Assembly: GCA_030704615.1 (NCBI GenBank)
Contig: CM060732.1
Coordinates: 56,916,001 to 56,980,000, forward strand
Direction of reading: 5' to 3'
DNA: 64,000 nucleotides
Origin: Takakia lepidozioides
Lineage: Eukaryota > Plantae > Bryophyta
The position numbers were made by a program, and so were the translations under genes. The notes below the pieces were generated by a model. It did no database searches. It saw only the letters and a list, made by a program, of their open reading frames with translations, and was not told the origin of the DNA. Position 1 is the stretch's first letter. Every line of letters starts with the position of its first letter. Positions 1,873-62,119 of the stretch are shown here, piece by piece.

Positions 1873-2237
1873 TGTCATGGTTTTAGTCATGGTTATCTAG
1901 AATTACCTACTTCTAGTTAACTAGGACATTTTAGATAATTATATTTATATTTTGTGTGTTGGGACTTCATTTGGTCTCACATACCAAGTGAGGTGTCGAG
2001 CCTCACTTGGGACATGGGGATAGGTTTTCCCCTTGTGAGGATGGAGGAGGCTCATCTTCTTGTAGTTGAGCCTCCATGAGCCTCTCCCACCTCCATAGCT
2101 CTAGGTATTGAGAGGTAGTGTGTTGAGGGCTTTGTAGGGTGGATTTCCTTAGCAAGGGTGCCATTGGCTTGACTTAGCTTATGTGATTGAGTGGATTCAT
2201 GAGTGGAGCGTTTTCATTATGTTCACTTTCATTATCA
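1873..2237 (+). repeat. Terminal repeat segment B1 of copy A
   Basis: Direct repeat of 17186-17548 (about 15 substitutions plus one 2-bp indel by eye). Contains TATA-like TATATTTATA at ~1940 and hairpins at 1984-2011 and 2047-2076. Confidence 0.9.
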
Positions 2238-2249
2238 CTACAAGAAGAT
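2238..2249 (+). promoter_or_regulatory. Putative self-priming primer-binding site of copy A
   Basis: CTACAAGAAGAT directly after B1 is the exact reverse complement of ATCTTCTTGTAG (2054-2065), a hairpin loop in B. No TGG tRNA-type PBS. Confidence 0.7.
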
Positions 2250-3629: not shown

Positions 3630-4100
3630 AAGGTTTTTTGGAGGATTGTTTGGGGGATCTTTGGGGTCCTTTGAGGAGCTGTTGGAAGACACTTTGAGGA
3701 CTTTTTGTAAGCCACTTTGAAGAACTCTTGAAGAGGTATTTGGATGACTGTTTGGAGGACTATTTGCGGTTTTTGAAGGCCAAGTTTTGGCAAGTTTTTT
3801 GAGCTTTTGGAGGGCTATGTAGAGGACCATTTGGGATCTTTAAAGGCCAATATTTGGCAAGTTTTTGGAGCCTTTGGAAGGCTGTTTGGGGTCCTTGGAG
3901 GCCGATATTTAGCAAGCTTGAGGAGTCTTTGGCGACTTGTTGAAGGACTATTTGGGGTCCTTGAGGGCTGAGATTTGGCAAGCTCTTGGGGCCTTGGTAA
4001 CTGTTTGGAGTACCATTGTGCAAGCTTTGGGAGCCTTAGTGAGATTGTTTGAGGGACATCTTGAGGGCTCTTAGAGAGTTATTTGAGAGATCCTTGAAAG
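3630..4100 (+). repeat. Degenerate G/T-rich short tandem repeat array in the leader of copy A
   Basis: Recurrent ~11-bp units such as TTTGGAGGAC, TTTGGGGATC and TTTGGCAAG. Confidence 0.5.
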
Positions 4101-4699
4101 GTCTTGTCTATTGCTTAAGCAAGAGAGTGTGGAAATAGGGTAGTGGGATGAGAGCATGTTGTGATAGGAATTGCTTTAGTCTCTCTTCCTTGTAGTCTTC
4201 CACCCTCTCTATAGGCCAAAACCTTTCTATATGTGGAGGTAAGAGTTAATCCGGGTTTGGGCTGGGGTGTCTTGCAAGAGCGACACTGTAGAGTGTTTTT
4301 GGTGTGGGGGAGTTACTGTTTTGATTTTCTTGTGCTTGGATCCCCTCCACACCTGCATGCTTGACTGTGCGCCATGTTAGTTTTGTGTGGGCGTTTGTTT
4401 TCATAGGAGGTTGGTCCAGATTTGATCACCTGTCAATCCTAGAGCATGTTGTCAGTGGTGAGGCTGGGATGATGACCAGTCAGACCATCATTGTTCTCTT
4501 ATGGTGAGGTTGGGTTGATGACCAACATACCATAGGAGTGTTTGCAGTGGATGCAAGTGCAGGTGCAGGTTTATGTTATGAGCCTAGTAGTCTAAGCCAT
4601 TAGCTGCAACAAGTTCTCTATCCGGTTACCTTGTGGAAAAGGGGATTAGACACAAGTTTACAACAGGTGTGGTTGTGAGTTTTCATCACGGAGGTGCCA

Positions 4700-6240
4700 T
4701 TGTTATGGCTTGCATCCTGAGCTATGGCCAGACTAGTTCCAAAGGAATAATGGTGGCCGAGGACGAGGCAATGTAGTTCAGAGAGTTAGAGGAGGCAGAG
4801 GTCGGGATGGAGGTTGTAACCAAAACCAAGGAGCACAGGGTCAGGGTCAAGGTCATAACCAGGGCATGGTGGATAGACTTGCCCAGCTAGAGCAACATCT
4901 TGCTGCCATGGCCACTACTCATGTTGCGCCAGCTCCAAGGCTTGAGGTTCAAGCCCCACCTGCACAACCTCTTATGCCTAGGGAAGACCAGATTGGTATG
5001 GGCTTCATATGTGGAGCCGCACTTGCAGGGCCATTGCATGTATTGGACTCTGCTGCTGCTGTCACTCGAGCAGCAACACGTGCTCTTGAGCCAAGATGAG
5101 CGGATGTGGATTTTGATCCACAAAGGGGGGAAGAGAGTCGTCAGACAAGGCTTCCACAGTCCTTTACATTGGCTGAGACAGTGTCACCTCCTCCATCAAT
5201 GGCACCCGCTCGCCCAAGTGTGTTTAGAGATAGAGCCACGAGTACCATTGGCGAGAGTTGGTGTGGCTCGGGAAATGTCAGTTGGTGGTGCTGCAAAGCA
5301 ATGTGCAACCAGTACATTGTTGGGGACGGCTACGACGGTTTACCAAACTCCATGTTTTTTGCAATGACCATTGCAATGCTGGGGATTTGGCCAGCTGCTG
5401 TATTCAGACTAGCAGCTAGACTCTCTGAGAGTGGTGATGCATCGACACTATCTGCAGAGATAGCAGATAAGGTACAGACTATGGATGCTTTGGATTCGAG
5501 GGTGAAGTCAGCTACAGCTGCGTCATGGCAAGTGGTGCAGGAGTTGTCAGCTAGGCCAGCCATTGAGCGCAGCATAATGACTCCTGAACTAGTCCTGGTG
5601 GACAATCAGGATGGAGTGTTTCAGTTGGGTGGTCCAACAGGGAGGAGGTATAGGCCACTACGGGTCTTGTTTGACTCGGGAGTACAGCCTTTGATGTTGG
5701 GGAGAGCAGTAATTGCAGGCTTGGGCCTTACAGAGGCGGACTTGGAGTCTTGCCCTTTCCAAATTCAAACATCTTTGGGTGGTTCAGAGAAGACGCGAGA
5801 GATTACACGCCATGAGCTCTTCATTCAATTGCAGCCGGATCATCCTACGGACGGCTCAGTCATGAGAGCTAAAGCCATCGTTACGAATGCGATGTCATAT
5901 GTGCTTGTTGGTGGGGCTGTGTTGTACCCCATGGGATTTATTCTGGACTTTTGGGAGGAAACGGCATCCTACAGGCCGGAGTGGCAGTCAGGGGATGGCC
6001 GACGTGCACTGCTCTCAGTGTGGTTTATTGGGAATGTAGCGGTGGCTCATAGGAACATGATGCCAACATTGGCTGCATTCTCAGGTGTGTTGGCTTGGTG
6101 TGGTGAGCTTTTGGAGGGCAATAGTCATGCAGATGATAGGCCACCACCTGATGAGGACAAGCAATTGGCATACAAGGCTGAGTTGCTTTCTCATGTTCCT
6201 GTGCATAACTCACTGTGGGGTACAGTTGGGGATTTGTAGC
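4700..6240 (+). pseudogene. Copy A: Gag C-terminal remnant plus aspartic protease
   Basis: ORFs 4866-5099 and 5106-6239 (RVLFDSGVQPLMLG), homologous to 59200-60700 of copy C. Most of gag is deleted. Confidence 0.8.
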
Positions 6241-6383
6241 GAGTGTCAAGCCAGTGTGTGCAACAAGCATGGCAATAGGCCTTTCCATCGGTAGGTGAGG
6301 GGAGTTTAGTGACATCACCTGGACCTCCTCAGTTAGCTTCATTGGACACAGTGCCTATTATCTGGTAACAACCTGATTCAGGC

Positions 6384-7330
6384 ATTTGTTTGCTAGACAT
6401 GTTTGGAGGCATGAGCACTGGGCTTGCAGGAGTATTGCAAGCATGAATCAAAGTACACAAGTACTTGTATGTGGAGAAGGATGAGATTGCTCGGCGTGTT
6501 TTCATGCGCCATGTTGTCTTGCTCACACATCAGTATCCTGAGTTGTTGCCTCTCTCAGCAATTCAAGGGTACCAAAAGGCCTTGCCAGCAGACATTATCA
6601 TGCTGGGGGCGGAGGATTTGGATCGACATGATCCCATTGACTTGGTGATATGAAGGTGGCTTTGTCAAGGACATTCTCCCGCAGATCATGATAATGATTT
6701 GCATGATGCACGATCGCATCTGTTTTGGGAGATGCTGCGAGTATTGCGTGACTTGCAGGTGAGGCAAGTGCAACCTCCAGCTTACATCCTGGAGAATGTT
6801 CCTCTCATGGGGGATTCTCGGGCCAGGGTTATGGCCAGTGTACATCAGATCCGGTCATGGATTGGACCAGCTGTATTGTTGGATGCAGCTGCAGCGGGTT
6901 CACGGGCACATAGGCCTAGGTTGTGGTGAATCAATCTTGCACCACCAGAGTTATTCAAGAGAGCCTATGATTCCATTCAATGGCCACCCAACCTCACGGT
7001 TGAGGGCATTTTGGACCAAGGGAGACAACCACAAGGAGTGCGACATGATGATCGTCCACATTTGGCGGTGATCAATCGAGTGGGGCAACCACGTGCGGCC
7101 TAGCCTACACTCATGAGTTTTCCTTCGTCTCATGTTTTTTGAGACAATGGTCCAGGGTTGATTTGGGACAATGTGTTACAACAATTGGTGGAGCCTAGAG
7201 CGGATGAGCAAGAGCGGGCAATGGGGTTTGCCACGGGCACTGCAACTGTGTCATCTCTGTCAGAAGCATCACGACGTCAGATGTTGGGTCGGGCAATGGA
7301 TCTCAATTGCTTGATATGGGTCATTGACTT
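6384..7330 (+). pseudogene. Copy A: DNMT3-like C5 cytosine methyltransferase domain (in-frame stops)
   Basis: Motif I LLDMFGGMSTG; IV DLVI*RWLCQG (PC mutated to LC); VI YILENVP; VIII LDAAAAGSRAHRPRLW; IX EQERAMGF; X LGRAMDL. Confidence 0.9.
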
Positions 7331-7577
7331 GTGCATGACTGAGCAACGGAGATTGCAAGCATTGGTGGCTACTTCTGCACTTCCATTGGTATTGCACCAT
7401 CTTTGCTAACCGGGACGGTGGAGGCAGTGAGTGGGGGCGAGCACAGGATCATGGGGTGCAAATACCCATGGCAGATGTGGGATGAGATGCGCAAAGAGAG
7501 AGTTATTGGATATCTTAAGCAGCAGTATGAGAAGTGGGGAGAGCCATACATTGAGGATCAGTTGGAGCCCAAGATGG

Positions 7578-8015
7578 TGTAACAAGGTAGAATCTAGAAG
7601 GTTCTAGATGGAGGAGGAAAGTTCCCTAGAAGTTTCCAGAATAACTAGGAAGGATCCTAAGAAGTTTGACGTAAGGAAGTTTGACTTGAGGCTCTCAAGT
7701 CAAACCTCTAAGATATTCATATTATGGAGAGTAGGTCAAATCTTTGATAAAGTCATATTATAGAGAATATGTCAAACCTATGAAGGTTGACTTTAGCAAG
7801 TATCTTTGATGAAGTCGTATTGTGGAAAATATGTCAAACCTAGGAAGGTTGACTTTAGGAAGCTTTGACTTGAGGCTCTCAAGTCAAAACCTTTAAAATA
7901 ATCATATTGTGAAGGGTATATAAACCTGCAATGAAAGCCTAGAAGGCATCGAGTTGTTTTGGGAAAAAGTTGAAAAGTACTTCTATTCTAGTTTGTGTAG
8001 ATCCTGGGTGTTACA
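7578..8015 (+). repeat. 5' LTR of chromovirus B
   Basis: Direct repeat of 13202-13639; TGTAACA...TGTTACA. Confidence 0.95.
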
Positions 8016-8016
8016 A

Positions 8017-8029
8017 TGGTATCAGAGCC
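8017..8029 (+). promoter_or_regulatory. PBS complementary to initiator tRNA-Met
   Basis: TGGTATCAGAGCC one base after the LTR end. Confidence 0.9.
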
Positions 8030-8666
8030 TAGTCATTCTTAAAGTTGGGAGTGAATACCTTCTTTAGGAGGATTTGATTAAGATGTTTTTTTTTTGGGAA
8101 ATTTTTGTTGTTAATATTTTTAAGTGTTGAATAGATAGTAGTGATGGTGCGCCATAATGATAGTATAAAAATTTTATGGACTTAAATCAACCCCATTTCC
8201 GTGATTTTCCTTCGGAGTGTGAGTTTAAAATTATATGTCGTCGTAAAGCAGAAATTAGAGATATGATAGTACAAAGATTTGGAGAGGAACAATATCAAGA
8301 AGTGTTACAAAACCCACGACCTGTCGTTTTTCCTATAATTAGAAATTGGAAGGTATACATATGTGTATATACATAGCTCATGGATCGAGGTAGACATTTT
8401 TCACCTAATTCTCCAACGCCAAATGTATTTAATATCAATGTGCGCGCCATCGACAAGCATCATCTTGTGAGATTTTTAGTTGCAGAATTTGGGTTGAATT
8501 CATAAATCTTGTCATGAGTTCAAACGTCCATTTTGTATTACCAATAGTCACGTACGAGATGGTTTGGGATTGCACTATTTACATATTGTATTAGGATAAG
8601 AAAATAGAAATAGTATACATTAATTTTAGAAGACAAACACCACGAAGGAAGGAGTAGTGGAGCAAG

Positions 8667-11600
8667 ATGACGGACAATGAAGAAATGGTGGACAACGCAC
8701 ACACTACTCATCAAGCCAATGATCAGACGGTGTGGATAATGGAGCGCTTACACGAATTGCAGAATGCTCTTGTCACGACCCAACAACAAAACAACGTGTT
8801 GATGAAGGAGCTTAAACAAGTGAGACAATCAACCGCATCGGGACTGATTGCTGATGGGTCGGATACGTTGCTGCAAAAGATGACCAAGACATGTAAGGTC
8901 GAGCAGTATAAAGGAAGTCGCGCAATGGGAGTACTAGAAGGATGGATTTATCGAATGGAGGTACATCTGTCATATTTCCCTACATCAAGTGATTTGGACC
9001 ACAGAATGTTCATACGATCTTTTCTACTCGACAATGCTTCAACATGGTTACAGACATGGGAGAGAAGACAGATTGCAAAAGGAGAACTTTTACTATGAAG
9101 CACCTTGAAAGCGGGACTGCTTCAACAATTCAAAGCAGTAGATGCTGTTACAACTACTCGAATGAAATTATGGAACTTGGAACAACGCGGGAGTGTGCAA
9201 AATTACATTGAAGATTTTTAGAATCTTCAGGTCCAAATCGAAGATATAAGTCATGCAGAAGCTTTAGACAACTTCAAAAAATGATTGAAGAAGAAAATTC
9301 AACGAGAGATAATTTTACGCAACCCGGTTGATGGCCATGAAAAAATTTCATTGGCCCAAAAGATTGAAGGGACGCTACCAAACTACGACGAACGTATACA
9401 CGTTCCATTGAACCAATACGGACCAACGCCTATGGAGCTTGGAAATCTTCGAAGACGGGATAACTTTCAATACTCTCAAAGAAATAGGCCAGGAATCAGA
9501 TATGGGGAAGATAACACACAGCGGCGAATGAAATTGAATGACAAGGATGTGACCTCCTCAACATTCTCACGAAGAGAAGAACAAAAGAAAACTCGACAAT
9601 ATTACAACTGTGGAAAATTCGGACATCTTGCAGTCAACTGCCGAAGTGGAAGGTACAATCGACAAACTTATCGAAAACCTCTTAATAGTTTAAGGAGAGA
9701 AGAAGATAACGAATATCATAATGAGCAGGAAAACGAGAACAACCAGTAAGTAGACCTCGCGGTCTTACTGGTTCTACAAAGAAGAGGAGAGGCGAGGGGC
9801 CCTACAAGGAGAAGAGACAAATCAGTCATGCGGGCAAGAAAAAGGCGCAGTTAATTGTGACAGATGGAACCTTGGAAGGTATTCATGTGAGAGTGTTAAT
9901 AGACCCTGGGGCAACAGAAAACTTCTTATTTAGAAAGGCTGCCTTGAAACTAGGACTCCCCTTAGAAAAGGATAAAAGAGAGGAAGTAGAAATGTCAAAT
10001 GGACATACAGAGGTCATTCAGACACTACCTAAAAACATAGAGTTGTCGATTGGTAAATATAGAGAAACCTTAGAATGACGAGTGGTCAGACTGGCTCGAT
10101 ATGACGTAATATTAGGCATGTCTTGGATGGAATCTCACAACCCTGATGTTGATTGGCGTAGAAAGTTAGTCAAAACCCAGAATTGGAAAATATGGGGAGA
10201 TCGAGTGAGGACACCATATCGAAACCTACCATCATTTGTTATAGGTACTACATCTATATGTAAGAAAGACTTATTATTTGTAGGTTTAATAAGAGACGTG
10301 GAAAATCCGAAAAAATACATGAGTGAGGTCCCTATAGAATTACAGAGTGTATTGAAAGAGTTCAAAGATGTCTTTCCAGATGACCTACAAGCACGGCTTC
10401 CACCAAAGAGAAGAGTAGATCATAAGATTGAGGTTGTTCCAAGTAAAACTCTTTCTTGTAAAGTCCCTTATCGATTAGCACCAAACGAGTTGGAAGAATG
10501 TAAGGCTCAAATCGAGGACCTACTATCAAAAGGCTTTATAAGACCAAGTGTATCCCCGTATCGAACGCCGGTGTTGTTTGTAAAGAAAAAAGACGGAGCA
10601 ATGCGCATGTGCATTGATTATCGAGCACTCAACCAGCAGACAGTGAAGAACAAGTACCTGTTCCCACGCATGGACGATCTATTTGACGAACTTCGAGGAG
10701 CAAAATACTTTACGAAGCTTGATCTGAGGAGTGGATACAACCAAATTCGAGTCGTTGATGAAGATGTATATAAGACCGCTTTCCGCACTAGATATGGACA
10801 TTTTGAATACATGATTATGTCATTTGGTCTCACCAATGCCCCAGCCGAATTCATGGGCCTCATGAATGATATCTTTCGCCTATTCTTAGATAGATTTGTG
10901 ATAGTCTTTTAGATGATATTCTTATCTATAGTAATAGCCTTGTCGAGCATAGAAATCACCTCAAACAAGTATTACAAGTTCTCCGTGAGAATCAGCCATA
11001 TGCCAAAGCATTTAAATGTGAGTTTGGAAAACAAGAAGTAGATTATCTTGGGCATCGCATGAGTAGGAAGGGAATTGAGGTAATGAGTGAGAAAATGGAA
11101 GCTATTCAGCAGTGGATAGCTCCTGAAGACATTACCCAATTAAGGAGTTTTCTTAGCCTTACCGGATTCTACAAACGATTTGTACGGGCATTCTCAAAGA
11201 TTGCCCAACCATTGACAAATCTTTTGGGCAAAAGAATTAAATGGAAGTGGGGTACAGAAGAGGAGTTAGCATTTCAGGCCTTGAAGGATGCGTTGTTTCA
11301 TGCCCCGATCTTGAAATGGTATGATCCGACAAGACTAATCAAGCTCTCGGTAGATGTGTCAGGCTCAGCAGTGGGTGGGGTATTACAACAAGAATGGGAA
11401 GACGGATGGCACCCAGTGGCATATTTTTCTCGCAAATTGTTACCTGCGGAACAAAATTACCATACAACTGAACGAGAAGAATTGACCATTATTTTGGGTA
11501 CAAACATTGGAAGCACTATCTTGGAGACAAAGAGTTCATAGTGGAGACAGACCATAAACCGTTGGTGTACTTGGCGACACAAAAAGATCTATTGAAGAGA

Positions 11601-13188
11601 CAGATTCGTTGGGCGGAGTGACGACAACAATTTAATATGAAGATCGTCTATGTGGAGGGAAAACGACAATTAGCAGATGCAATGACAAGGATGCCGCGCA
11701 TGAACACATTGACAGAAATCAACATTCAACCCGATTGGTGGAACAAGATAGCGACGGCTTCTAAAGATGATGGAGAGATCGTGGACGCTAAAAAGAAGGG
11801 CAAAGTGACAGAAGTTTGAGGGTTGGTATTCAAGGAATGTAAACTTTGGATTCCTGATGAACCTGCATTGAAGACAAAAGTCTTGTTTGAAGCTCATGAT
11901 TGGCGATAGCATGACATGTTGGAGTTGAAAAAACATTCGAACAACTAAAACGAACATTTTATTGGCCGCGGATGCGTGACGAGGTGAAGGCGTACGTTCG
12001 AAGTTGCATGAGATGTCAACAAAACATGTCAACAAACCGCAAGCCAGCAGGTCTTTTACAACCACTACCAGTACCAAACAGACGTTGGGAACATATGAGC
12101 ATGGATGTAGTTTGTGAGTTCCCTCAAACCTCACCGGGATATGACACTATAGTGGTCTTTGTAGACAAATTGAGTAAGATGATACACATCCGTCCCACTA
12201 GAAAAACCGTCACTGCACCTGAACTAGCTCGACTATATTTGGAAGCGGTCTATTCTCATCATGGGCTATCTAAAGTTCTTATTACTGACAGGGGTACCCA
12301 ATTTACTAGCTTGTTTTGGAAAAGCTTATTTTGTTTTTTTAAAACCAAATTAGCTATGTCAACAGCCTATCATCCGGAGTCAGATGGACAGACAGAGCGA
12401 GCAAATTGTACAATTGAAGACATGTTGCGGGCCTTTACATTAGAAGAACAAGAAGAGTGAGATTGGTTATTACCATTGGTAGAATTTTGATACAATAACT
12501 CGGTCAATGCGTCAACGAAAGATTTTTTATTTTTATTTTTTTTTATGTATGGTGACCACCCAAATGTGCCAACTCTTACGAAGTTCAATTTACCAAAAGA
12601 GGAGTTATCCAAGGTAGCCGCGACTAACGCATTTGTGCAACAAAATCGACGGGGAGTACATCAAGCTAAAGAGAAGCTGATGGTTGCCCAAAATCGCCAA
12701 AAGCAGTATGCAAATGTACGTCGATGGGATCAGGAGTTTGCAGTTGGGGATCAAGTGTGGTTGTCTACAACCAATTTACACGTCATTGGATCACGAAAAC
12801 TAGGGGCACGGTTCTTGGTCATTTTTCGATCATTAAACGCATTGGAGCAGTAACATACAAGCTGGAGTTACCACCACTTATGAAGATCCACCCGGTGTTT
12901 CACGTTTCTCTATTACGTCGTTACGAACCTCGACCATCAATATTCAAAGATAATCAAGAACCACAACCTTTACCAGAGTTGATAGACGGAAATGAAGAGT
13001 GGGAGGTCGACCATGTTCTGAAAAAACGCACATATAAACGAGGGCGACATGAGGTGTTGGAGTATTTGGTTTTATGGAAAGGATTTCCATTATATGAAGC
13101 TACCTGGGAACCGGTGCAAAATCTCGCAAATGCTCAATTGGCAATTCAAGCTTTTGAAAATTCGAACAACGAGGACGTTGCTTCTTGA
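8667..13188 (+). pseudogene. Chromovirus B gag-pol with chromodomain (stops and frameshifts)
   Basis: Degenerate zinc knuckle YYNCGKFGHLAVNC; protease LIDPGA; RT LDLRSGY and F*DD; integrase core with HPVFHVSLL; chromodomain EWEVDHVL..EYLVLWKGF..ATWEP. Confidence 0.92.
9728..9773 (+). promoter_or_regulatory. -1 ribosomal frameshift signal of chromovirus B
   Basis: G GAA AAC in gag frame, 6-nt spacer, stem AACCAGTAAG/CTTACTGGTT. Pol frame is -1 and open from this point. Confidence 0.75.
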
Positions 13189-13201
13189 AAGAGAGGAGGA
13201 T

Positions 13202-13639
13202 TGTAACAAGGTAGAATCTAGAAGGTTCTAGATGGAGGAGGAAAGTTCCCTAGAAGTTTCCAGAATAACTAGGAAGGATCCTAAGAAGTTTGACGTAAGG
13301 AAGTTTGACTTGAGGCTCTCAAGTCAAACCTCTAAGATATTCATATTATGGAGAGTAGGTCAAATCTTTGATAAAGTCATATTGTAGAGAATATGTCAAA
13401 CCTATGAAGGTTGACTTTAGCAAGTATATTTGATAAAGTCGTATTGTGGAGAATATGTCAAACCTAGGAAGGTTGACTTTATGAAGCTTTGACTTGAGGC
13501 TCTCAAGTCAAAACCTTTAAAATAATCATATTGTGAAGGGTATATAAACCTGCAATGAAAGCCTAGAAGGCATCGAGTTGTTTTGGGAAAAAGTTGAAAA
13601 GTACTTCTATTCTAGTTTGTGTAGATCCTGGGTGTTACA
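13202..13639 (+). repeat. 3' LTR of chromovirus B
   Basis: Direct repeat of 7578-8015, preceded by a polypurine tract. Confidence 0.95.
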
Positions 13640-13644
13640 AGTGG

Positions 13645-16600
13645 CTAAGGTTTTTGAAGAGGTTGAGAATGTTTCTTGCTCAAATGATGTTCTTAAGGTG
13701 GCTATGTCGGAGCAAGTGGAGGTTACGCCACAGTCAGGGTGGGCGGACAAGGCCCAAGTGGTTGCTATCTAGCAACCAAAGGATGCGTCTCCTACCTCCA
13801 AGCCCGTTGTACCCAAGGTTGTAGTCACTGAGGACAATTGGGAACCATCTGTTGGACCTACAGTCACCGGAGGAGAGAGACGGAGGATCCAGCAATTTCT
13901 AAGGGCTTATAGAAATTGCTTTGCCTTCGGTTTGAAGGATTTGGGCAGTTTGAAGGGCCAGGAGATTCGTATTGATTTGGCAAGTGATACGCCAATTTTC
14001 GAAGGCCTTATAGGTATAGTGACATGAAGAGGTCTTTGATCCAGTCACGGACTGTTCGAAGCTGGATTGATGGAGTTATCAGGCGGGGAGTATGCCTCGG
14101 CAACAGTGATGTCAGCTAAGAATGATATCTATGGCAACTGGACAGAAAAAAGGATGTGTGGGGACTATCGTCCTATGAACCATCAAACTAAGTCCGATAG
14201 ATATGCCATGCCAATTCCAGAGGAAATCTTTGATGTCATTGGGCATGCACAGTTGCCAATCATTAGACTTACGATCGGGTTATCACCAGTTGCCAATCAA
14301 AGAGGCTGACAAGCAAAAGACGATATTCTGGGGGATTGACCAGCATGGGAAGGATTGTTTGTACCAATGGCGCTTCCTACCATTTGGGTTGAATAATGCT
14401 CCTGCAGAGTTTCAGAGGGTTATGGATAGGATTCTTGCAGGGCTAGACTTCGTCCGGTGCTACATTGATGATATCATCATATTTAGTGCCACGGTTGAGA
14501 AGCATGAGAGACACCTTCAAGTGATGTTTGAGCATTTGAGGACGTATGGATTGAAACTGCACCTTGGAAAGTGCAAGTTCTTCCACGATTAGACTGAGTA
14601 TCTGGGCCACATGATATACCCTGGAGGATTGGGTGTTCAACAGACAAAAGTGGAGGCCATTGCATGCATTCTACGCCCCATAGATGTAAGCAGAGTTCGT
14701 GCTTTCATGGGGTTGGCAAACTACTATCGACGGTTTGTCAAAGGATTTAGTAGCATTGCAAAGGTTCTTATCAATTTGACCAAGGTGGGTCAGGAGTGGC
14801 AGTGGGAGGATGAGCAGGAAGAAGCCTTTGAGGAACTCAAGGCTCGATTGACTTCTACGCCTATTCGGGGGCGGCCTTTCCAGCCGCATACGGATTGGAG
14901 TATGCTGGGGATTGGAGCAGTGCTCATACATGTGGATGATGATGGAAGAGAGTTCGTAGTGGCATATGCTAATTGCTCAAACAATGATGCCGAAGTGAAG
15001 TATAGTTCCTATGAAGCAGTATGGGCAATGACACATTTTAGATGCTACCTCTATGGCAATCTCTTCACCCTTGTCATGGATCACCAACCATTGAAGTGGT
15101 TGATGGAGTCAGATAAGCTTACAGAGGGGCTTGCACGGTGGACACTTATGCTTCAAGAGTACGACTTCCAGGTGGTGTATCGAGCCGGAATAGTCAACCG
15201 GGATGCGGATGGATTGATGATACATGAGCTCATTGGCATGGTGAGACGGATGAGGAGATAGTGCCAGGATGACACGCATCTGCCTTTTTGTGCATTCTAG
15301 CAATGGGAGCTCAAGCTGGTCCATCCCATGTGATTGGTCATAGAGATAGTGTGCATGACAATCCAGAGATCAGTGATGAGCTTGGTGGTGCTAAGGATGT
15401 ACATGAAGATGCAGTAGTGTTGGCCTACCTTCGTACTGAAGAGACAACAGCCAGTGTGATTGCTAAAGGAGAGAGATCGGATCCTACAACGAGCCAAGAG
15501 GTTCAAGTGGGAAGGACTCACCTACTCCGAGTATGGGAGGATGGACGAGTGATGATTGTGCCTCATCCAACACAACGAGCGCGATTGGTACGCCATGCCC
15601 ATGAGGAGTTGAGACATTTTGGATTGTGGCGCACTTATAGTTTGCTGCAATGACAGTATTGGTGGCGGGGCATGCACACGGATGTGCAACAGTTAGTGAC
15701 AAGGTGCATGGTGTATGATAGAATGTGGGCTTCTTTCAATGCACCTACTCCACAATTGCATTCTTTACCCATTATAGGTTTGGGCTATCGTTGGAGTCTT
15801 GACTTCGCAGGCCCATTGCCACTAACGATTTGCCATAACAAGTATGTGTTGGTGATGGTGGAACATTTCTCCAAGTGGATTGAACTGGTGGCATTGCCTG
15901 ACAAGGCAAATGAGGGGGCTGCGTATGCATTCTTAGATTGAGTGCTTAGCCAATTTGGTGCTCCAGCCGAGGTACTCACGGACCAGGGGAGAGAGTTCTT
16001 GGGGGAGTTTTCAGGCTTTGTGTGAGCAAGCCTTGATAGATCACCGCACTACTTCTTAGGATCATCCCGAGGCTGATGGCTTGGCAGAGAGGGTTGTGCA
16101 AACAGTCAAGCGAGGCTTGCGTAAGTATGGCTTGCAGAAGAGACACTTGGGAGATTGGGACCTTCAGCTACATTGGTTGGCCATGGGCTACAGGTTTAGC
16201 AAGCAAACATCACTTGCCTCGTTCTCGCCTTATTTTCTTTTCTTTGGCCGAGAGCCAGATTTGCCTCCATCTATTCGCAGGGAGACTGCAGTAGTCCTAA
16301 ACCTTGATAATCCGGATGTGTGGACGCAAGCATGTGCCCAGCAGACAGAGTTGTTCAAGAGAGTCATGCCTATGACTTTTGAGAACCTTGCTATTGCCCC
16401 AACACCAAGATACATTGAGGTACACTATACGTGGAGGGGGGTATCGACCAGGTGCTTGACATTTCCATCCTGGGAACTATGTGTATCTACAGCAGACAAC
16501 ACTTACGACCTTGGATGTCACAGAAAATCGTGTGATTCTAAAGGTCCGAGAGGTGTTGCCTTCAGGAGTGTTGATTCTGGAGGGGCGAGATGACATGGTA

Positions 16601-16841
16601 TGGAAGGACCATGTGCGCAATTGTATGTCATGTCACCTTCCACATGTGGATGGGAGATCCCAACCTTGCAGTGGTACCTGCAGGGTTGCGTTGCATGCTA
16701 TGTGGGCATGCTGGTGGTGCCGCGACCATGTTGGTGTGTGATAAATGCTCAAGGGGGTGACACATGGGATGCTTGATACCGTCGCTTGAGGAGGTTCCTA
16801 GTGGAGAATGGTTGTGTCCATGATGCCTTGGACAGAGGTAG
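13645..16841 (+). pseudogene. Copy A: RT-RNaseH-integrase-PHD finger (decayed)
   Basis: MCGDYRP, LDLRSGYHQ, CYIDDIIIF, HTDWS, HEELRHFG, SLDFAGPLP, AERVVQTVK; terminal PHD at 16692-16827. Confidence 0.9.
16692..16827 (+). other. PHD finger (C4HC3) coding segment at the integrase C-terminus
   Basis: CMLCGHAGGAATMLVCDKCSRG*HMGCLIPSLEEVPSGEWLCP*C. Confidence 0.9.
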
Positions 16842-17087
16842 TGGGGCATGATAGTGGCGAGATTGACAAGTGATCGAAGGTCTAGCTAACCGGATTTCAA
16901 TGCCATGGACACCCAATTGAAGCTATGGATTGCAGGAAGGCGAGTAACGATGGGGCTCCTTTTGCACCCGGCCTCTTGATCTATTGACTTCAGATACTGG
17001 GACTTGGGCGATTGATGACCAAACGATGATCTTATTGGGATGGATACTTGTCAGCTATCTGGTGTTAGAGGGACCTAATCATCAGCT

Positions 17088-17097
17088 AGGGGGACGA
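17088..17097 (+). promoter_or_regulatory. Polypurine tract of copy A
   Basis: AGGGGGACGA immediately before repeat segment A1 (T-TGTGGT). Confidence 0.6.
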
Positions 17098-17098
17098 T

Positions 17099-17634
17099 TG
17101 TGGTATAGCTTTCTAGGATTGTGTGTTTTAATTATGTGGTGGACATCGATGTATGTTGTGGCACAATGCTTAGGTGCACGACAGCTGTCATGATTTTAGT
17201 CATGGTTATCTAGAATTACCTACTTCTAGTTAACTATGATATTTTAGACATTTATATTTATATTTTGTGTGTTGGGACTTCATTTGGTCTCACATGCCAA
17301 GTGAGGTGTCGAGCCTCACTTGGGATATGGGGATAGGTTTTCCCCTTGTGAGGATGGAGGAGGCTCATCTTCTTGTAGTTGAGCCTCCATGAGCCTCTCC
17401 CATCTCCATAGCTCTAGGTATTGAGAGGGAGTGTGTTGAGGGCTTTGTAGGGTGGATTCCCTTAGCAAGGGTGCCCTTGGCTTGACTTAGTTTGTGATTG
17501 AGTGGATTCATGAGTGGAGTGTTTCCATTGTGTTCACTTTCATTATCATTGTGGTATAACTTTCTAGGATTGTGTGCTTCGATTGTGTGGTGGACAACGA
17601 TGTATGTTGTGGCACGATGCTTAGGTGCACGACA
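17099..17634 (+). repeat. 3' repeat block of copy A: A1 (17099-17183), GC, B2 (17186-17548), T, A2 (17550-17634)
   Basis: A1 and A2 are 85-bp direct repeats (7 mismatches). B2 repeats 1873-2237. The A1/B2 junction is the palindrome GACAGCTGTC. Confidence 0.9.
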
Positions 17635-17638
17635 ACAT

Positions 17639-18300: not shown

Positions 18301-20341
18301 TTGTCGCTCTCATGTACATAGAGAGAAACTTTGCATCATGTTGAAGTCAACGAAAAAAATATGGTCAAAGGACCATGTGTGGTGCTCAGTCATGCTTCCT
18401 AGGCTTACCTTCCTCTTAGGGCCTTGCCGCTCGCGAGTTCCGGTGACATGGACTTCCGTGGCTAGGACTGTACCATAGTGATGTTATGGAGAGGAGGCCA
18501 AAGTCAGCAAAAACAAAACAACGCTACCACATGAATAACAGTCGGGCACGGGAATAGATAGTTTGAGAAACAAAAATGAATGAGGAGATGAGCTCCTCCG
18601 CGGGAAGGAGCGGACCACGACAAAGAAGTTCCCTAAATTTTCCGATTTCCAGGCAATAGTCCCTAGAAACCTACTGTGGAGAGGCTCCACATGAGCACCA
18701 TGTCACATTGCCCTTTCCTTGCTGATCCTCTTGTGTGGTAGGTGAGGGTGTGAGCTTACGATCCATCAACCAATCACCAGGTTGCGTTTGTTTCCACCGC
18801 CGCTCGTGTGGTAGCGCCTGAATGAGTTTTTAGAAAACAAAACTTACCTTGGTGACCGGAAGATCCGGTAAGACATTTGCCGCGCTTTTGGCTCGCTTTC
18901 GCGCGCTAAGCCGCCACAGGCTAACTTAGCAACGGTGGAGAGGAAGAGAGAACTGGAGTGATGAGTTTGCCAAACGGAGCTGGAGGGAAATGGTGTATCC
19001 AGCTTCTGGTATGACGTACTTGCTTTCAAAGTTGAGGATGTGTGATGGGTTTCGAGTTGTTCTGGAAGCCGGGAACGGGGTTGCTTGGACTGGACCCGGC
19101 TGGTACGAGGTTAGTCGGTTTGATAGTTCAGAAAGTGTGATGGGTTTCAACTTGTTTTGGCAATGGGGAAGTGGGTTTGTGAATTGATGTGGGGCGTTTG
19201 GAGCCGGGTTGAACCTGAAACGCCTCTGATCATCGAAATCACTAATACTGACCTGTGGTTTTCTCTGACTCGGTCTTGGCGTTCATGGGAAGTGCTTCAA
19301 TGCTACTGACTCTTTGTCTTCTCTCGTTTCCTGCCAGAATGCACTGAATGTAGCGCTCCTCGAGTTGATTCTACGTATGGGCTACCCTTACGGCACCGAA
19401 GGTTAGCTGCAAAATGTCGACATTGATAAGATTGAAGAGCGAAGAAGTTCACTTGTTAGTTAGGAACAAAATATAGGAAATGTGAAGCTGGAATTAAATT
19501 ATGGAATGCTTCCTACCTCCGTTTGTATTCTCACTCTTGGACAGCTGTAATGGTTTTGTCCAGTGGGGGACGTGTGTCTCAGTTGTAGAAAAGGAGCTTA
19601 CTGTAACTCTGAACGCTCTAGCCATCTACAGGGCGGATCAATAGGGAATATGGTCTGTTTAGCCAATGTGAAACGTTTCCATTGAACACCATCTCCCAAA
19701 AACTGTTCATTGCTCGAGGAAATCGATTGAACCTGGTTGGCAGTTTGATGCCAGAAAGCAAACATCTCCTTACAAGCTCACCGTAGACATTTTTTTGCCA
19801 GTAAAGCTAACACTTTCTTTAGTGCAACTCTGTCTCTAAAAATTGCATCTGTCTACTGGCAAGCAGGGGATACATAATTATATGCATGTGCATGGCATGC
19901 CTTCCCTTGAATTGAGTGTGGGTCTCAGCGATAGGAGCCACGCCCGGCCTTTCTCCTCGAACCCAATGGAGTGAAGGTCAACAAATAGTATCTGGTAGCT
20001 ATTGATGACATGGCGGCCAGATGCATCTGATGAGAATTGAGGTCTGCCTTGGATCTTCTCACCAATTTGATAGACAAATTAGCTTCCAATATTTGGGCCA
20101 AATAGGTCACTGAAACTCTGTACAGCCTCTGGTATATGAGGACATACTTTGGGACGCTCCCGTGAAGATATTGGCGACATTCTGGGGACCAACCATTAAA
20201 ATCCAGAAAGGTTTCAGCAGAAGGGAAAGTGAGGGAGGAAAAAGCATTGATGGCTACAGCAGAGAAGATTAAACTTCAGGAAATAGGCCATAAACTGAGG
20301 AAGTGAGAAGCACGGTTGATTCTTATGCAAGCACATCAAGG

Positions 20342-23300
20342 ATGGGAAGTAGGGATGAAGAATATTTTGCCAACTGGGTCAAGGGGTTTGATATTCTTAA
20401 TGATGAGCCCAAGTCTGAAGTGAGCAATGAAGGTCTGGTAGTGTCAATGCAAGCGCAGGCAACGTCTCGGACAGTAGAAACTCAACAAAGCAGCTTGGCC
20501 AGCAGTTCAGGGATGGGTGAAGATTTAAAGGAGGGTAGAACGTTCATGACTATGTTGTCTAGCACTGTCAGTGAAATTGAATGTGAAAAGGGTGGTCTGA
20601 GCAACAACAAGAGGCTTAGGGAGTCGGCATGGCCTGTGGATGGGTGTCAGGGTCAAAAGTCAAACATCTCAACTTCAACAGAGAGTGCTGTGCCAGAATC
20701 AGCCATCCTTCCCAAGGTAGGCCCACGGACACAGAGAGAGCTCGCACACAACCCATGGGAGGAATCCCAAGAAGCTGCCAACCAGCAATGGGATTGGATT
20801 GACTTCAGTGACTTCGGTCTTAGCAATGTGTCTCCAGAGGTAGACAAGTCCAGGGGAGATGGTGCTTGGAAGTCAACTACCTTCGACTGGAGCCAGTCCA
20901 GTATGTCTACGCAGCCAAATTCTGTTGTCATGAAGTCTCCATTCAGTGGAGAAGATGAGGGAGAATTTGAACTAGGCGTGATTTCAAATGCATTCTTTCG
21001 AAAAGATATGGTGCTTGACAAGTGTTTATCAAAAGAAGAAGCTGGGTGGGATCTTGCACTGGAGGAATTTTTAGAAGAGGCCTCCCAGCCAGAAAGTTGG
21101 AGGCCAAGCAAAACAACGACATTTCCTTATATGTTTGCTAAAACAGACATGGATGTTAAGGACTCACTATTGAGTGGACAAGAAGAGTGGCAATTGGAAA
21201 TAAGCCCAGGGGAGCTATCTCAGGCAGATATCAGTCAGCCAGGGAAGTCATGTACCACTGAAGTAATAGAGAATTGCCTGCTAGGAACAGCCACCCTTCC
21301 TAATGTGGCCTCAGAGTCGCAGTTGGACCCTAGGTTCTCCTGTAACAGAAAAGAAGATAGGGCCAGTGGGATTAATGCTATGCAACCGACCTTGAACGTG
21401 CGGCCCCACATTGACAAAGTGTTGTTGCATGAGCAAGTGGGGAGTGAGATCAAGAAGAAAATGTGGAAGAGGTCAGAGGATCCCTTGGATAAACACTCCG
21501 GTTATTCATGTACTGACTTGTCTTTTTTCAGCCACATTAGCAACAGGGAGACTGGTTGTGGGAGAAGCAAGAGCAGGGCCTTACTGTTTAGGGATCCCAT
21601 AATCTGCGTTGACAAATCCTTCCGCGAAGTTGCAGAGGATGAGAAAGCATCTGGTGCAAAGAGAGTGGCTGGCAGTGACAAAACCAGTGCAAAGGGAGGG
21701 GTTATTGACCTGACTGGATTGTCGTCTGATAAGGTAGAGGTAATCGATCTTTCGGAGAACTCGTCGAAGGTGTGGGTATGGCCAAAAGCTAAGAAGCACT
21801 GTCCTCAACAAAGTGGCTGGAAAGGTAAATTTTTTGAAACTGTGAAAGGAACACAAGAGAGGGAAAACTTTCAAGTGAGGAGTGCGAACAACTGTGACGA
21901 GGTCAGAGGTGAGGTGATTGATTTGACTAATTCGTTGACTGATGAACTGGAGTTAATCGATCTTTCAGTGTCTTCATCCAGTGAGTTGGAAGGAACGAAA
22001 GATGGCGATGACTTGTTAGATGGTTCTCAGTCTCTGTTCGGCACTGCATCCAAGAAAAGAAAAGCTTATGGTGGCCAAATTGGATTTCAAAGAATTGCGA
22101 AGAAGCTCGGTCCTGCTGTTGAGTGCTCAACTGTTCCCCCTGATTTGGATGGTGATATTTCGGTGGGGAAAGAGATGGAACAGTGTGTTTTGGCTTCCAA
22201 GAGTGATGGTGTGACCACAATCCAGGAGGATCCAAACCAGCGTGTGCCTCTTGAAGACGCCACTTTCGTGCTGAAAGAGAAAAGGAGAAACCTGGGCTTG
22301 GCTGAAACAATGCCTTGTGATATTCTTGACAATGTCACAGAACAGCACATTATCACTACAGGGCTGCCTGAACTGGCTGCAGACCTATCTGATGTGATAC
22401 CAGAGCAATCTGGCACTGCTAACCTGCCTGTGTTTTCTTCACAGCTGCCGGATTCTGCCCTCAAGGACTTCAAAGAGGTAGGGGAACTTTTTCCATGTAT
22501 CTGTGGCACCAGTTCACTTTCTGCTTTCACAGATTCAAGAGAAGTGTTTCACTTTTCAGATGAGGATGGTGGGTTCTCAATGGATGCCAAAGCTGAATCA
22601 GCGATTTCAGCAGCAGAGTCTGATCGAGCTGAAGAAAGCACCAGTTCTGTGGAGCAAATCCAGGAAGAAAAAGCGACCCCTCTGGCAAAATCTCTATCTG
22701 TGGACCCTTCGATGAGAGGGAATGAGAATTTTTCTGGTGGAAGAACACTTGGCACAGAAAAGCCCCCAAAGACAGTCTTTCCAAGGAATGCAGAAGCTGT
22801 CTGCTTCGTGGAGGTAGACAGTACATCGAAGCAAGTTGGCATACTGGCAGCTGGGATGGCAGCTCTTGGTCCTGTATTAATGCCTAAGATATCTGAGTCA
22901 TGTTGCATGAGTACCAGAGCTGAAGAGGCAAAAAGAACATCACAGATAGATGGAGCAGTAGAGAGGCATAGTGCAGAGGAGCGAAAGCAAGCACCAGAGC
23001 CGGAAAGCTTGAATAGTGACATAGAGGATGTAGATGACATTGTGGACAGTGATGGAAGGGTGGACACAGCAGGGGCCCATGAATTGGCACAGACAAATAA
23101 AAGGGATGGGACACATTGCAGGGAAGATACATCACTCTATGCTGGTGAGCCCTCCGACAGGGGATCAAGCGAGCTAGAGAGAGAGATATGTGATTTACTG
23201 GCCATGAAACTGCTCTCTGAAAACCTTGAAGATGACACCCGATATGAGACTGATTACCTATTGGAGGGGCCTGTCAAGTTGCCCTGCAAGCGAAAAGTGA

Positions 23301-26300
23301 GGATTCATTAATCTCCTGTTTCTGTTCATCATCTGATGCAGTAATAGGAATTTACTTCATTGTAGATTAAGCCATCACACTCTAGACATTGTTCCTAACC
23401 AGGCATGCATCTCTGCTGAGTCCACTGATTGCATCTTAGTTAACAAGATGGATTTATGTGCTTGGATGCACTCCTGGTCCGGACATGGTTTGATGTTTTC
23501 TGAAGTGGTTTCTTGTTGTTCTACTTTCGCCAATGGGCTCTCCGTGGACATCATGTAGTTTCTAGTTCTAGTTTCTTTCGGACATTATAAAGTACCAGTT
23601 CAATTCATTTCTTCCATTTGTCTCCTTTCATTTTCCTTTCTACATATAACTCATGTGTTTTTTGCTGCAGACTATATCTCCCTGGGCACAGTTAGAGCTA
23701 CTACAGGCATCCCATCCTGATAGTTTTCAACTGCAAATGCCTCAACCCTTTCTGTCAAAGAACCATTCAAGTGAGTACTTCAGCTCCATCTCACTTCTGT
23801 AGTAACTGTTGGTCGGATGTCCAGTGTGTCAAAATCCGATAGCATTACTTGGTTCCCTGAATAAACTTATTTGGATGTAGCAGACTTTATTTCTCTAGGA
23901 ATGTGTCATGTGATGCTTATGTGTCCACTCTACAGATGACCACAACAGAGGTAGCTGTTACCAAAGTCCAAGCAGGACAGCTGCTGCAAGTCGGCTGAAG
24001 GTGCAGTCGGGCAAACATGATGATGCTGACACCCTACCTTCAAACCCAATCCCACCAACTCTAGAAGATGAAGGTCAAGGGGACAGTCATCCTAGCTTAC
24101 TGGAGGAGTCCACTCAAACTTCACTTCTCTCCCATTCCGAAGATAAACAGGCTTTGCACTCCAGCGTATGTCTACCCGTTTTGAGATCACCTTCTCCACC
24201 TCTGCAAGATAGGTTGGCAACTGGCTACTGTGAGCCACCTCCAAAAACTTCCCCTGGCACCTATGCCTCTGGCAGCAAGCATTCCAGGTGGGCTTCCCCA
24301 GAGAACAATAAAGAAACGTGCTTGCAAGAGCAACAACCAGGATTGCAGGAGCCGCATTTACTACACAGTCGGGATACTCCTCTGGGTCGAATTCCCCATG
24401 GGTCACATAGTAGTATGTGCAGCCCAGAGACCTCTAATAGATTGATTGCGTCAACCCCTAAGGGCATCCTCAAAACAAACTCCAGGCGTTGTCAGGCACA
24501 GAGTGAGTGCCCCAGGTGTGCTGCATTGTGTCAGCAGGCAAAAACTACTTCAGAATTTGTCAGCTCACAAATGCAGTACATTGAGAAAATCGCAAGACGA
24601 TTGATAGGACAGTTGCGTGGTATGTGCACGTCGGTACAGGAAGAGCTCCTTCCAGGCCCAGGATCAGGGTCTTTGGTGCCACTTCGTGCATCACCCCAGA
24701 AGGTGATTTTCCAGTTCTTTAGACTTCTATTATATTATTCAGAAATTATATACAGATGTCTCTGTAACAATGTACAAAATTTGGAACATATGGTCCAGTG
24801 TGGCCCAAGAGTTTAGTATGTACACTGTCCTTTCCGAGAAGTTATAGTCGTTGACAAACAGTTAGGAAATGGCAGTTCCTTGTTGCAGCCTTGGGCTTCT
24901 GCTTGATAGAGATCACAAAACAAGTCGTAAAAAATTTCTTTTGTTCATTCTTGGTGCTGCAGGTAAGGGCTGCATCTGCCAGTGCGGCAAAAGTGGAGGT
25001 ATGGGCACAAAAGCAGCTTGTGAAAATGGCACGTGACTGTCGACGCGTTTGTCACTTAATGGTATACTTGCTTATCCCTCAACCAATCTTTGGTGTCAGC
25101 TGCCTCTTTGTAATGCATTCGATTGCTTCAAGATCCACAGAAAGCAGGGTAAGATACTCAAGAGGCTTGTTGTGGCCTTGAAAAGTGCAGGCTCATTTTG
25201 GACGGACATGTATAATGCTTGAATGTCAGTGCAGTCACCATGGGTCAATACCTTACTTCTGGGAAATGAAATGAAATGAACTGGTACTTTGTAAACGTCC
25301 GCTGGAAGCTCAAAGAGCTCATGGGATAAGAGGAAGAAAGAAACAAGAAAGAGAGAGGGGCCACAAACAGCCCAAAAGCAACTACAGTTCAAGGGATTCT
25401 AAGAGTCACTGCTTCATTCAGGTAACCTGCCAAGCATTTCTTATCCTCGTAATGGAAGACCTCTGTGAGAGATTGGGTATCCCGGAATAGACGGTTGAAT
25501 CTCCCCTGGATCTCACAGTATGAAGGGCAGTGAAAGAAGAATTGTTCTTCACTTACCAATTTCCCTGTAGTTCCCCGCGCAAGGGGGCCGTAGTCGGTCG
25601 TCACGTTTCAGATTTACCCACCTACCAGTCTCTCTGCAGACTGTGGGAGCCCACCCTGAACCTCCCAGAGCTGCAGACAGGTAATTAGGTCACAAGATCC
25701 TACCGCCACGAAGAACCAAGAAAGTCATAGAATTGCAGTTTTGTTGTTCGAGTGGCTGATTTCCGTGTGTGCCTGACATGCAGTTCCACAAGTTCTCTAA
25801 TGCATCTATTGCAATCCGCAAAATCCACCCCCTTTTCCCAGATCATCCAACTCCTTGTAGCTGGTTGCATGATAGAATAGACAGACACAATTGCAATATC
25901 ACAAAACAAATAAGCTAGCACTGTTTCAGGGCCTTGTTTGCACAAGGGATATGAACTCAAACTGTGGATGACAGATTTGGAGGCTGAGTTGAGAGGGATG
26001 GTGGCTGTAAGTCGCATGTTGGGTTGTCCATCATCTTTTGGGAACTTTCTCTTGGTTGTATGTTGTGTAGTCGGGTGATACTGAAGAGCACTGGATGCAA
26101 CCTCAGCTTATTTTGAGAAGTATAATTATTTAATCCACAACTTTGCACACTTATGCAGGACACAGGGCCCAGGAGGATCAGATTTGCAGACGAGGTGGGG
26201 GGGCGGCTTTGCCATGTCAAGTACTTCCATGAACCTCCGAAAACTAAGACATCCATTGCCACAACGGCAAATTGTGTCTCAGAAGAGGAAGAAAGTCTTA

Positions 26301-54286: not shown

Positions 54287-54432
54287 AATGTTACAACGAT
54301 GATGTCAGCCAAGTTAGCTTCAAGGTGAAGACTCCGCATTCAATGTACCTGATACACGCTAAGGAGGGAGGAGCACCACACATCAGTATATATAGCTACA
54401 CTTCCAGCACTCTTGCATCTTCTATTGGCAGT

Positions 54433-54834
54433 ATGGAGTCGCAGGAACCAGATACATGAGAGTTGTCGCTTACCCAGCTACCAGATCAGCCGTTCCGACT
54501 CTTACGACCTTCAACATCACGCCGACGCTCTCGAGACGATGGGCCACCAATGCGACGCATACTTCCTCGTCTGGACCCCGTACGACGGCAAGTGGAGCCT
54601 ACTTGAAGTCTGATAATTCTGTTGGAGATTGAGGCTTTGGACCCAGAGGGCAACGAAATCATGTTTGAAGGCAGTTTCAAAAATCAGAATGCTCAAATCA
54701 CTGCGTGGTCCCAAGTTCAAGGTATTGGACATTATCGATGGTTGCATGGACCTATAAATCATTTGAGTCAAGAACGAAGAGCCGAATACTTGACAAGTAC
54801 CATTCGTCGGATTTTGGATTTTCTCCAACTCTAA
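54433..54834 (+). pseudogene. Accessory ORF (~133 codons, two internal TGA) between pol and PPT of chromovirus D
   Basis: ATG 54433 is in frame with ORF 54622-54834; TATATATA at ~54387. Confidence 0.5.
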
Positions 54835-61820: not shown

Positions 61821-62119
61821 GGCTAAGCAACGCAGAGTGCGGAGTACACTTCCCTTGATGGTCTATCTGCCTACCGAGACAGTATAGGCAGTGAGTGGGG
61901 GCCAGCATGAGAGGACCACGGGGTGCAGGCATCCATGGCACACGTGGGAGGTGCTCGAGGTTCAGAGGGAGTTGGCAGCCAGGGCGGCGGTGATGGATGA
62001 GGTTGGGGATTTTTCTCGGGTAGGAAGTCCTCGAGGATGAGATGATGGGGCAGGATGAGGCCTTGTCATTGACTGAGCAGGCAGGGAGTATTGCTCAAGA
62101 GGTTGCAACATAGTAACCA

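Follow-up and report, generated by a model that had tools for sequence, protein, structure and literature searches.

A likely self-primed, Dnmt3-carrying Ty3/gypsy retrotransposon with split repeats and a palindrome at its b/a junction

Results

A nest of retrotransposons holds two split-repeat elements

The 64,000-nt stretch of DNA analyzed here (the window, whose positions serve as coordinates throughout; all stranded features lie on the + strand) is a nest of retrotransposons. Element A is flanked by a 4-bp target-site duplication (ACAT at 1869–1872, and the same 4 nt at 17635–17638) and starts with the 365-nt repeat a1 (1873–2237), the opening bases of which are the right half of a palindrome found inside the element. 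Within a1 lie an AT-rich TATA-like box (1940–1949), a G-run with ATAG (2016–2024), and a hairpin formed by an upstream arm (2047–2054), a loop (2055–2066) and a downstream arm (2067–2074, or 2066–2074 when its first flanking base is included) whose TTGAGCC motif is kept in A, in a second element C and in family M (see below). A 12-nt putative self-primer (2054–2065) is the perfect complement of the putative primer-binding site that follows the repeat (2238–2249), and an 11-nt motif of uncertain role (2164–2174), present in A, C and M, can pair with 2064–2072 (two G-U pairs).

The coding remnants of A are decayed. They comprise the end of gag, a protease and a Dnmt3-like methyltransferase (4697–7482, interrupted by stops, with ∼1.2 kb of the gag present in C missing) and a reverse transcriptase (RT), RNase H, DDE integrase and PHD finger (13640–16850, interrupted by stops and frameshifts; the PHD match at 16686–16757 is weak). 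Between them is a nested chromovirus-like element (7578–13640) with LTRs 98.9% identical and a primer site that begins TGGTATCAGAG, which we take to be a tRNA-Met site. Downstream of a polypurine tract (17084–17097, conserved in family M), the order is b1 (17098–17183), GC, a2 (17186–17548), b2 (17549–17634), and then ACAT. Repeat a2 is a recurrence of a1 (95% identity) with a primer copy at 17367–17378; b1 and b2 are 92% identical, and b2 abuts the end of a2 directly. Around a 2-nt GC centre, b1 and a2 meet in a near-palindrome (17177–17192), a putative integrase site whose halves are the outer ends of the element. The leader of A contains a tandem array of ∼67-nt units (3739–3993), which is unrelated to the array of 10-, 32- and 42-nt units at the matching place in the leader of C (56776–57215).

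Element C starts at 48588, leaves the window, and shares 68–80% DNA identity with A over the aligned internal segments. Its repeat a1 (48588–48914) is strongly structured (z −8.3 over 48640–48980), and it has a hairpin with arms at 48731–48738 and 48751–48758 and a loop at 48739–48750, a putative self-primer of 12–16 nt (48734–48749) and a putative primer-binding site (48915–48930). Its gag, protease, Dnmt3-like, RT and RNase H regions (57981–64000) extend beyond the window. C was inserted in the gag of one chromovirus copy (46916–48587), and a second copy (49111–55520) was inserted in the leader of C. Both chromovirus copies have a Tf1/Tcn1-type self-primer, preceded by a TATA box at −31 and by an arm that mimics the site. 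The LTR of the first copy (46916–47518) was used as an in-window control (47209–47531: TATA at 47209, upstream arm, 11-nt primer at 47240–47250, site at 47521–47531); the Chromo match was found in its sister copy. Elsewhere in the window, two long ORFs with armadillo repeats (31830–35267 and 35855–38476) are probably host genes, and a 1,005-aa open frame (20294–23311) is without a Pfam match at E 0.01.

The repeat and the site that follows it are complementary in A and C

The original prediction had the 12 nt after repeat a of element A pairing perfectly with a hairpin loop, and the site of C changed correspondingly. Both observations hold. In A, 2238–2249 pairs perfectly with 2054–2065, or over 13 bp if A2237:T2066 is counted, and when the dinucleotides of repeat a were shuffled, a match of that length arose once in 20,000 trials. 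For C, 15 of the 16 nt at 48915–48930 find a partner in 48734–48749 (one mismatch, one G-U), a result equalled in 7 of 3,000 shuffles, and the pairing in a third locus, L071, was equalled in 8 of 20,000. When 16 nt were scored with G-U allowed, A was weaker (14/16, 35 of 3,000 shuffles) because its match stops at 12. The pairing in A, C and L071 is far beyond chance. Between A and C, two pairs are changed on both sides, one has turned G-U and one is broken.

The predicted stem-loop was accurate for the arms and loop of A. In C, however, the duplex includes 5 nt of the 5′ arm of the stem, and it therefore competes with the hairpin and is not confined to the loop. The 3′ end of the primer pairs flush at the repeat end in A, C and M.

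Among 1,528 contigs of run X1 aligned to 2005–2275, primer and site were without a variant at 2% or more, and the upstream arm was nearly invariant in A's family; positions 2040, 2041, 2043, 2082 and 2087 varied in at least one-third of the depth. A single C-to-T substitution at 2059 would yield a G-U pair, and a change at 2250 (∼28% of X1 depth) would add one pair. The summed X1 contig depth on repeat a (1873–2237) exceeded the leader depth ∼10-fold and the flank depth by a factor of thousands; depth is not copy number, yet the excess suggests that the family has very many copies, many of them solo or short.

Independence from tRNA, also part of the original prediction, is borne out by sequence: no site starts with TGG in A, in C or in 15 of 15 distinct family-M copies, and the site of A has no complementarity to the tRNA CCA end. 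ARAGORN scans of the window and of 19 of the 80 loci described below detected no tRNA. Rfam gave nothing above noise on either repeat, and therefore no known ribozyme. Neither the hairpin pattern nor a relative was found in viral contigs, and no relative in genome contigs.

Primer and site covary among three related families

A metagenome scan with the methyltransferase alignment retained 80 of 97 loci. The majority are members of a single family, M; in the RT tree, it falls with proteins from Marchantia and Calypogeia. In 24 rows, the end of repeat a could be located: it is followed by the primer site in 19 (15 distinct insertions), by repeat b in 4, and by other DNA in 1. The M primer site reads exactly CTCAAAGAACT in 6 of the 15 distinct insertions and is altered in the others. 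Its complement is an 11-mer in repeat a directly 5′ of TTGAGCC, as in A and C. The upstream arm of M is a copy of the primer site itself, and therefore can only compete with the site.

As predicted, the pairing covaries: three families have three distinct sites, each matched by its own repeat. When the A, C and M duplexes were anchored at the repeat end, 5 of 11 positions (3, 4, 7, 10 and 11) changed on both sides. In alignment A3 (MAFFT; A, C and 10 M copies), 3 of 10 scorable pairs changed on both sides and 95% of cells pair; none of 500 shuffles reached 3 double changes, and slid partners gave 0–2. This covariation covers three related families. Self-priming is the plain reading of such a site, and is likely on these sequence grounds.

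Two further groups of loci were noted. A fourth family (L065 5860–6362, L070; L080 1860–2220) has a b-a-b layout, a TATA box, a hairpin and a weak duplex (−14.9 kcal/mol) with the presumed site; it is too decayed and was left out as covariation evidence. L074 is a distant relative (RT 42% to P0067, methyltransferase after RT) known from a single copy. It has the same type of palindrome and a hairpin arm that mimics a site ∼355 nt downstream, with a 14-nt perfect match to the site (features at 5862, 6164 and 6519).

TATA spacing and folding point to a primer at the RNA 5′ end

A TATA-like box ∼110 nt before the primer had been proposed. It exists in A (1940–1949, at −114/−112, that is, 112–114 nt upstream of the primer), but C lacks it, as do all 5 of the M copies scanned. 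In M, the TATA box measured from the first base of the 11-mer is at −31 in 10 rows (TATAAA in 9) and at −29 in 6, of 16 rows matched by a pattern that permitted only offsets from −24 to −36; the copies missed are changed there. With a strict 8-mer and one mismatch allowed, TATA was found at −31 in just 1 of 5 M copies. TATA at −31 is absent in A and C: A has TATA-like sites solely at −114/−112, and C is without any upstream. The G-run and ATAG of A (2016–2024) occupy the location of the family-M TATA box, with which they are presumably homologous, and A has no canonical TATA. In the control chromovirus, TATA at −31 is followed by the site-mimicking arm and then by the 11-nt primer, the complement of 47521–47531. 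This layout is the Tf1/Tcn1 pattern, with a hairpin of the same logic.

The duplex was then folded from different starts with a program that cannot model pseudoknots. In A, its probability was 0.93–0.96 for starts from 0 to −6 and 0.00–0.12 for starts from −8 to −110, with 0.03 once the upstream arm was included. The chromovirus duplex reached 0.94 from the primer start, and C no higher than 0.55–0.59; the duplexes of C, L071 and the chromovirus fell at starts from −16 to −20. From the primer start, 7 of 13 M copies gave 0.69 or more. Addition of U3 lowered the value in 5 of those 7 and raised it in 4 of the other 6, which are mutated copies.

A helix joining the conserved downstream motif (2164–2174) to the bases that follow the primer had a probability above 0.5 in 3 of 15 units; it was predicted in C and not in A. 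The helix bases are invariant across A, C and M, and we treat this helix as a lead only. In the printed folds, a U5 helix reaching the repeat end was predicted in C, and none was predicted between the LTR and the bases after the site. Contigs of X5 and X6 (presumed RNA) begin at 1954, which is likely an assembly branch point rather than a transcription start.

The proposal of a new fold with an internal, loop-presented primer finds no support in the M TATA spacing (−29/−31), the chromovirus layout or the collapse of the duplex with the upstream arm. Taken with the folding predictions, the evidence points to a Tf1-like primer at the predicted RNA 5′ end, which we rate about four times as likely as an internal primer. 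The hairpin seen in the original prediction is probably the U3-R hairpin of the 3′ copy; its upstream arm is predicted to lie mostly upstream of the transcription start.

The integrated ends are the halves of the b/a palindrome

The b1/a2 near-palindrome, whose halves are the outer ends of A, recurs in family M, in the distant L074 and at the loose ends of 24 X1 contigs. The elements have a TG-type start and a CA end, and the 4-bp duplication is exact in 7 of 10 full copies and matches at 3 of 4 bases in the other 3. Two symmetric nicks, one after each CA of the palindrome, would leave the CA recessed behind a 2-nt overhang, as in the usual processed substrate of an integrase. Retroviral integrases can cut palindromic 2-LTR junctions, as reported in PMC1905944 and PMC1180852.

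Two integrated forms were observed, a-internal-b-a-b and a-internal-b. The longer form is complete in A, L041, L058 and L062. Seventeen distinct M insertions show the tract, b1 and its continuation: 7 run into repeat a (one via a small deletion) and 10 straight into flanking DNA; two further M insertions show b and flank without the tract. Both ends are visible in 5 of the 10 straight-to-flank copies, and all 5 have duplications (4 exact, 1 with one mismatch). The mirror form a-b-a-internal-b, which could arise if a 2-LTR circle can be opened at either site, did not occur among the 80 loci. The b1/b2 and a1/a2 divergences are alike (88–96%).

At the a2/b2 join, the last base before the primer site abuts the first base after the tract. 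The join is flush in A, L007, L041, L052 and L062. In L058 it carries filler DNA (10838–10857), partly copied from the nearby repeat a, which looks like end-joining. A flush join is what end-joining of a cDNA with an LTR of b + GC + a would leave. Separately, the CAGCTG centre of the b1/a2 junction reads CAATTG or CAATTA in L052, L058 and L062, the change expected if methylated CHG decays on both strands. The end structure fits an integrase that would open LTR circles at an internal site. Recombination of b1 with b2, or a collapse in the assembly, could also account for the shorter a-internal-b form.

The element is a Ty3/gypsy retrotransposon outside the chromoviruses

The element is a Ty3/gypsy retrotransposon with Dnmt3-like and PHD domains and split repeats, of the KnitGypsy-Dnmt3 type. 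The intact relatives P0067 and P0061 have the Ty3/gypsy order protease-RT-RNase H-integrase with a DDE integrase. Their domain search returned rve and H2C2 integrase domains and no match to a tyrosine recombinase, and they end in a PHD and no Chromo domain. An RNase H domain is present in the element. For the methyltransferase part of C, 65 relatives were found, the best from Calypogeia and Marchantia (63–70%); PF00145 was detected on most relatives, the window copies of the methyltransferase being broken, and the PDB matches of relative P0009, 29 in all, are without exception DNMT3A/B/C. A quick RT tree, built without an outgroup and without a Tf1 sequence, places A, C and their relatives in a group of 43 rows (SH-aLRT 99) apart from 8 chromovirus-like rows. 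The Tf1-type trait found here is an LTR-internal stretch of 11–12 nt that complements the site, its 3′ end meeting the end of the LTR, whereas the chromovirus trait of a 5-bp duplication with ordinary LTRs is replaced by a 4-bp duplication and split repeats. The element probably works like Tf1, but it is not a Tf1/sushi member.

Discussion

We consider it probable that the site following repeat a is the primer-binding site of a Dnmt3-carrying, split-repeat Ty3/gypsy element that primes itself in the manner of Tf1. Transcription is predicted to begin at the 11–16-nt primer or a little upstream of it. The 5′ end of the RNA would fold back onto the site, and the element's own RNase H would cut after the primer. 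The upstream hairpin arm would lie in U3 and be absent from the RNA 5′ end; the hairpin would be restricted to the 3′ copy of repeat a and may there hide the second copy of the primer. The product of reverse transcription would be a linear cDNA with an LTR of b + GC + a, and the integrase may act on the palindrome within the LTR, not on the cDNA ends. Opening of a 2-LTR circle at the palindrome would give a-internal-b-a-b, and opening of a 1-LTR circle, or cutting of a linear cDNA at both sites, would give a-internal-b; without a 3′ R repeat, this form would be a dead end.

Other sources of the primer were weighed. Under the original prediction, transcription would start ∼30 nt after the box at 1940 and the primer would stay in a loop inside the RNA, to be used through a pseudoknot or refolding and an internal cut. 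That the only TATA-like matches in A's repeat are at −114/−112, that the hairpin is conserved while its extension differs in sequence between A and C, and that the upstream arm is nearly invariant in A's family would all be accommodated by such a primer, and a pseudoknot would escape the folding program. We nevertheless judge it unlikely: neither C nor any of 5 M copies has the −110 box, TATA lies at −29/−31 in M and in the in-window chromovirus, and hairpin and duplex are mutually exclusive, since the C duplex needs 5 nt of the arm and the M arm is a site copy. Moreover, a 12-bp duplex threaded through a closed loop of 12 nt is sterically unlikely. Priming by a host RNA (a tRNA half or another small RNA), with the internal pairing serving RNA folding, packaging or strand transfer, would agree with the use of tRNAs by all non-chromovirus Ty3/gypsy groups of REXdb and with the half-tRNA priming known in copia groups, both as tabulated in PMC6317226. 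We regard it as very improbable, because no site starts with TGG and three families have three sites, each tracked by its own repeat in the geometry of a primer. Least probable in our estimate, and only slightly behind a host RNA, is use of the 3′ primer copy, in which an RNA that ends or is cut at the primer in a2 primes at the site with its own 3′ end. The primer does occur in both copies of a, and the repeat layout resembles that of DIRS-like elements as described in PMC5890265; at that place, however, the upstream arm is present and predicted to block pairing, and the TATA spacing of M indicates a 5′ start at the primer.

Self-priming could be real and the split repeats still not derive from an internally cut circle. 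Repeat b2 would then come from read-through RNA or a template switch, and the a-internal-b copies from later deletions. We give this reading somewhat less than an even chance, an estimate that concerns the integration step only and is not to be added to those for the other primer sources. The similar divergences of b1/b2 and a1/a2 (88–96%) are compatible with any model in which both are renewed, direct repeats that lie close together readily recombine, and the mirror permutation was not seen in 80 loci. The conserved palindrome at the b/a junction, with its halves as the integrated ends, speaks against it, as do the 4-bp duplications of the a-internal-b copies (n = 5; 4 exact, 1 with one mismatch) and the filler DNA in one a2/b2 join. 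Our tentative proposal, to which we likewise give rather less than an even chance, is that a DDE integrase gave up the cDNA ends for an LTR-internal palindrome, in a self-primed, obligately circle-integrating lineage in which only a-internal-b-a-b copies would transpose again and which would be the third, non-chromovirus, case of self-priming in plants.

If true, these data would mean that (i) a self-priming non-chromovirus gypsy element stands as a third plant case beside Tcn1 and TAR, the two named in the table of PMC6317226, which bears on how often tRNA-free priming arose; (ii) an upstream arm, found here and in an unrelated neighbouring chromovirus, suggests a general way to silence the 3′ self-primer copy; and (iii) the integrated DNA keeps an apparent end-to-end join and ends in palindrome halves, and so offers a short, defined substrate for the integrase. 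We consider the end structure more novel and weightier than the priming. Whether LTR circles are true integration intermediates is an old question of retrovirology. Searches of open-licence PMC and bioRxiv texts found neither self-priming nor an internal integrase site described for this lineage, and 10.64898/2026.05.21.726589 and PMC12344493 mention the Dnmt3 elements no more than in passing.

The nearest described system is KnitGypsy-Dnmt3 of Klebsormidium nitens, which has Gypsy domains, a Dnmt3-like methyltransferase in the polyprotein and DIRS-like A-coding-B-A-B repeats (PMC5890265); the likeness is one of description, and no protein named from Klebsormidium was among the matches of the relative searches. 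As far as it bears on the element, that source says nothing of a primer, a palindrome, a target duplication or a route of integration, and it places KnitGypsy-Dnmt3 in a charophyte only, whereas the close relatives found here are from Marchantia, Calypogeia and Sphagnum. A circle route would explain the DIRS-like layout that was noted there without a mechanism.

Tf1 primes with its first 11 bases and makes use of RNase H cleavage (PMC7175516). According to PMC7175516, 10.1101/2022.12.06.519325 and PMC4600332, Tf1/Tf2 and the Tf1/sushi group share with our element a short LTR-internal self-primer, a site right after the LTR and, by prediction, a start at the primer. Tf1/sushi elements are chromoviruses with ordinary LTRs, in contrast to the absence of a chromodomain, the PHD and Dnmt3-like domains and the RT outside the chromovirus group seen here, and the three-duplex "pretzel" fold of Tf1 is only partly seen in this element. 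In plants, self-priming is predicted for Tcn1 (gypsy, 83% of elements) and TAR (copia, 89%), and the table of PMC6317226 lists it for these two only, with no self-priming non-chromovirus gypsy. Tcn1, however, has a chromodomain and 5-bp duplications, and TAR is a copia element. Phygy and Selgy are, by description in the same source, non-chromovirus gypsy elements of seed-free plants with 4-bp duplications, and Phygy is of similar size, but they have tRNA-Trp or tRNA-Ala sites and no extra domain is listed for them. The sites found here start with CT, and none of 10 duplications reads NCGN, the target preferred by Phygy, although CG decay could hide some.

Split direct repeats also occur in the DIRS-like PAT, Ngaro and TOC1, which use a tyrosine recombinase. 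SymbioDIRS-Dnmt3 shares the A-coding-B-A-B layout, but it is described with a tyrosine recombinase (PMC5890265), in contrast to the DDE integrase and 4-bp duplications found here. Closest in the proposed integration step are the foamy virus and HIV-1 integrases, for which cutting of a palindrome made of two abutted att ends is described in PMC1180852 and PMC1905944. In those viruses the palindrome arises when the cDNA ends are joined, whereas in this element it is part of the LTR and the integrated copy retains the end-to-end join.
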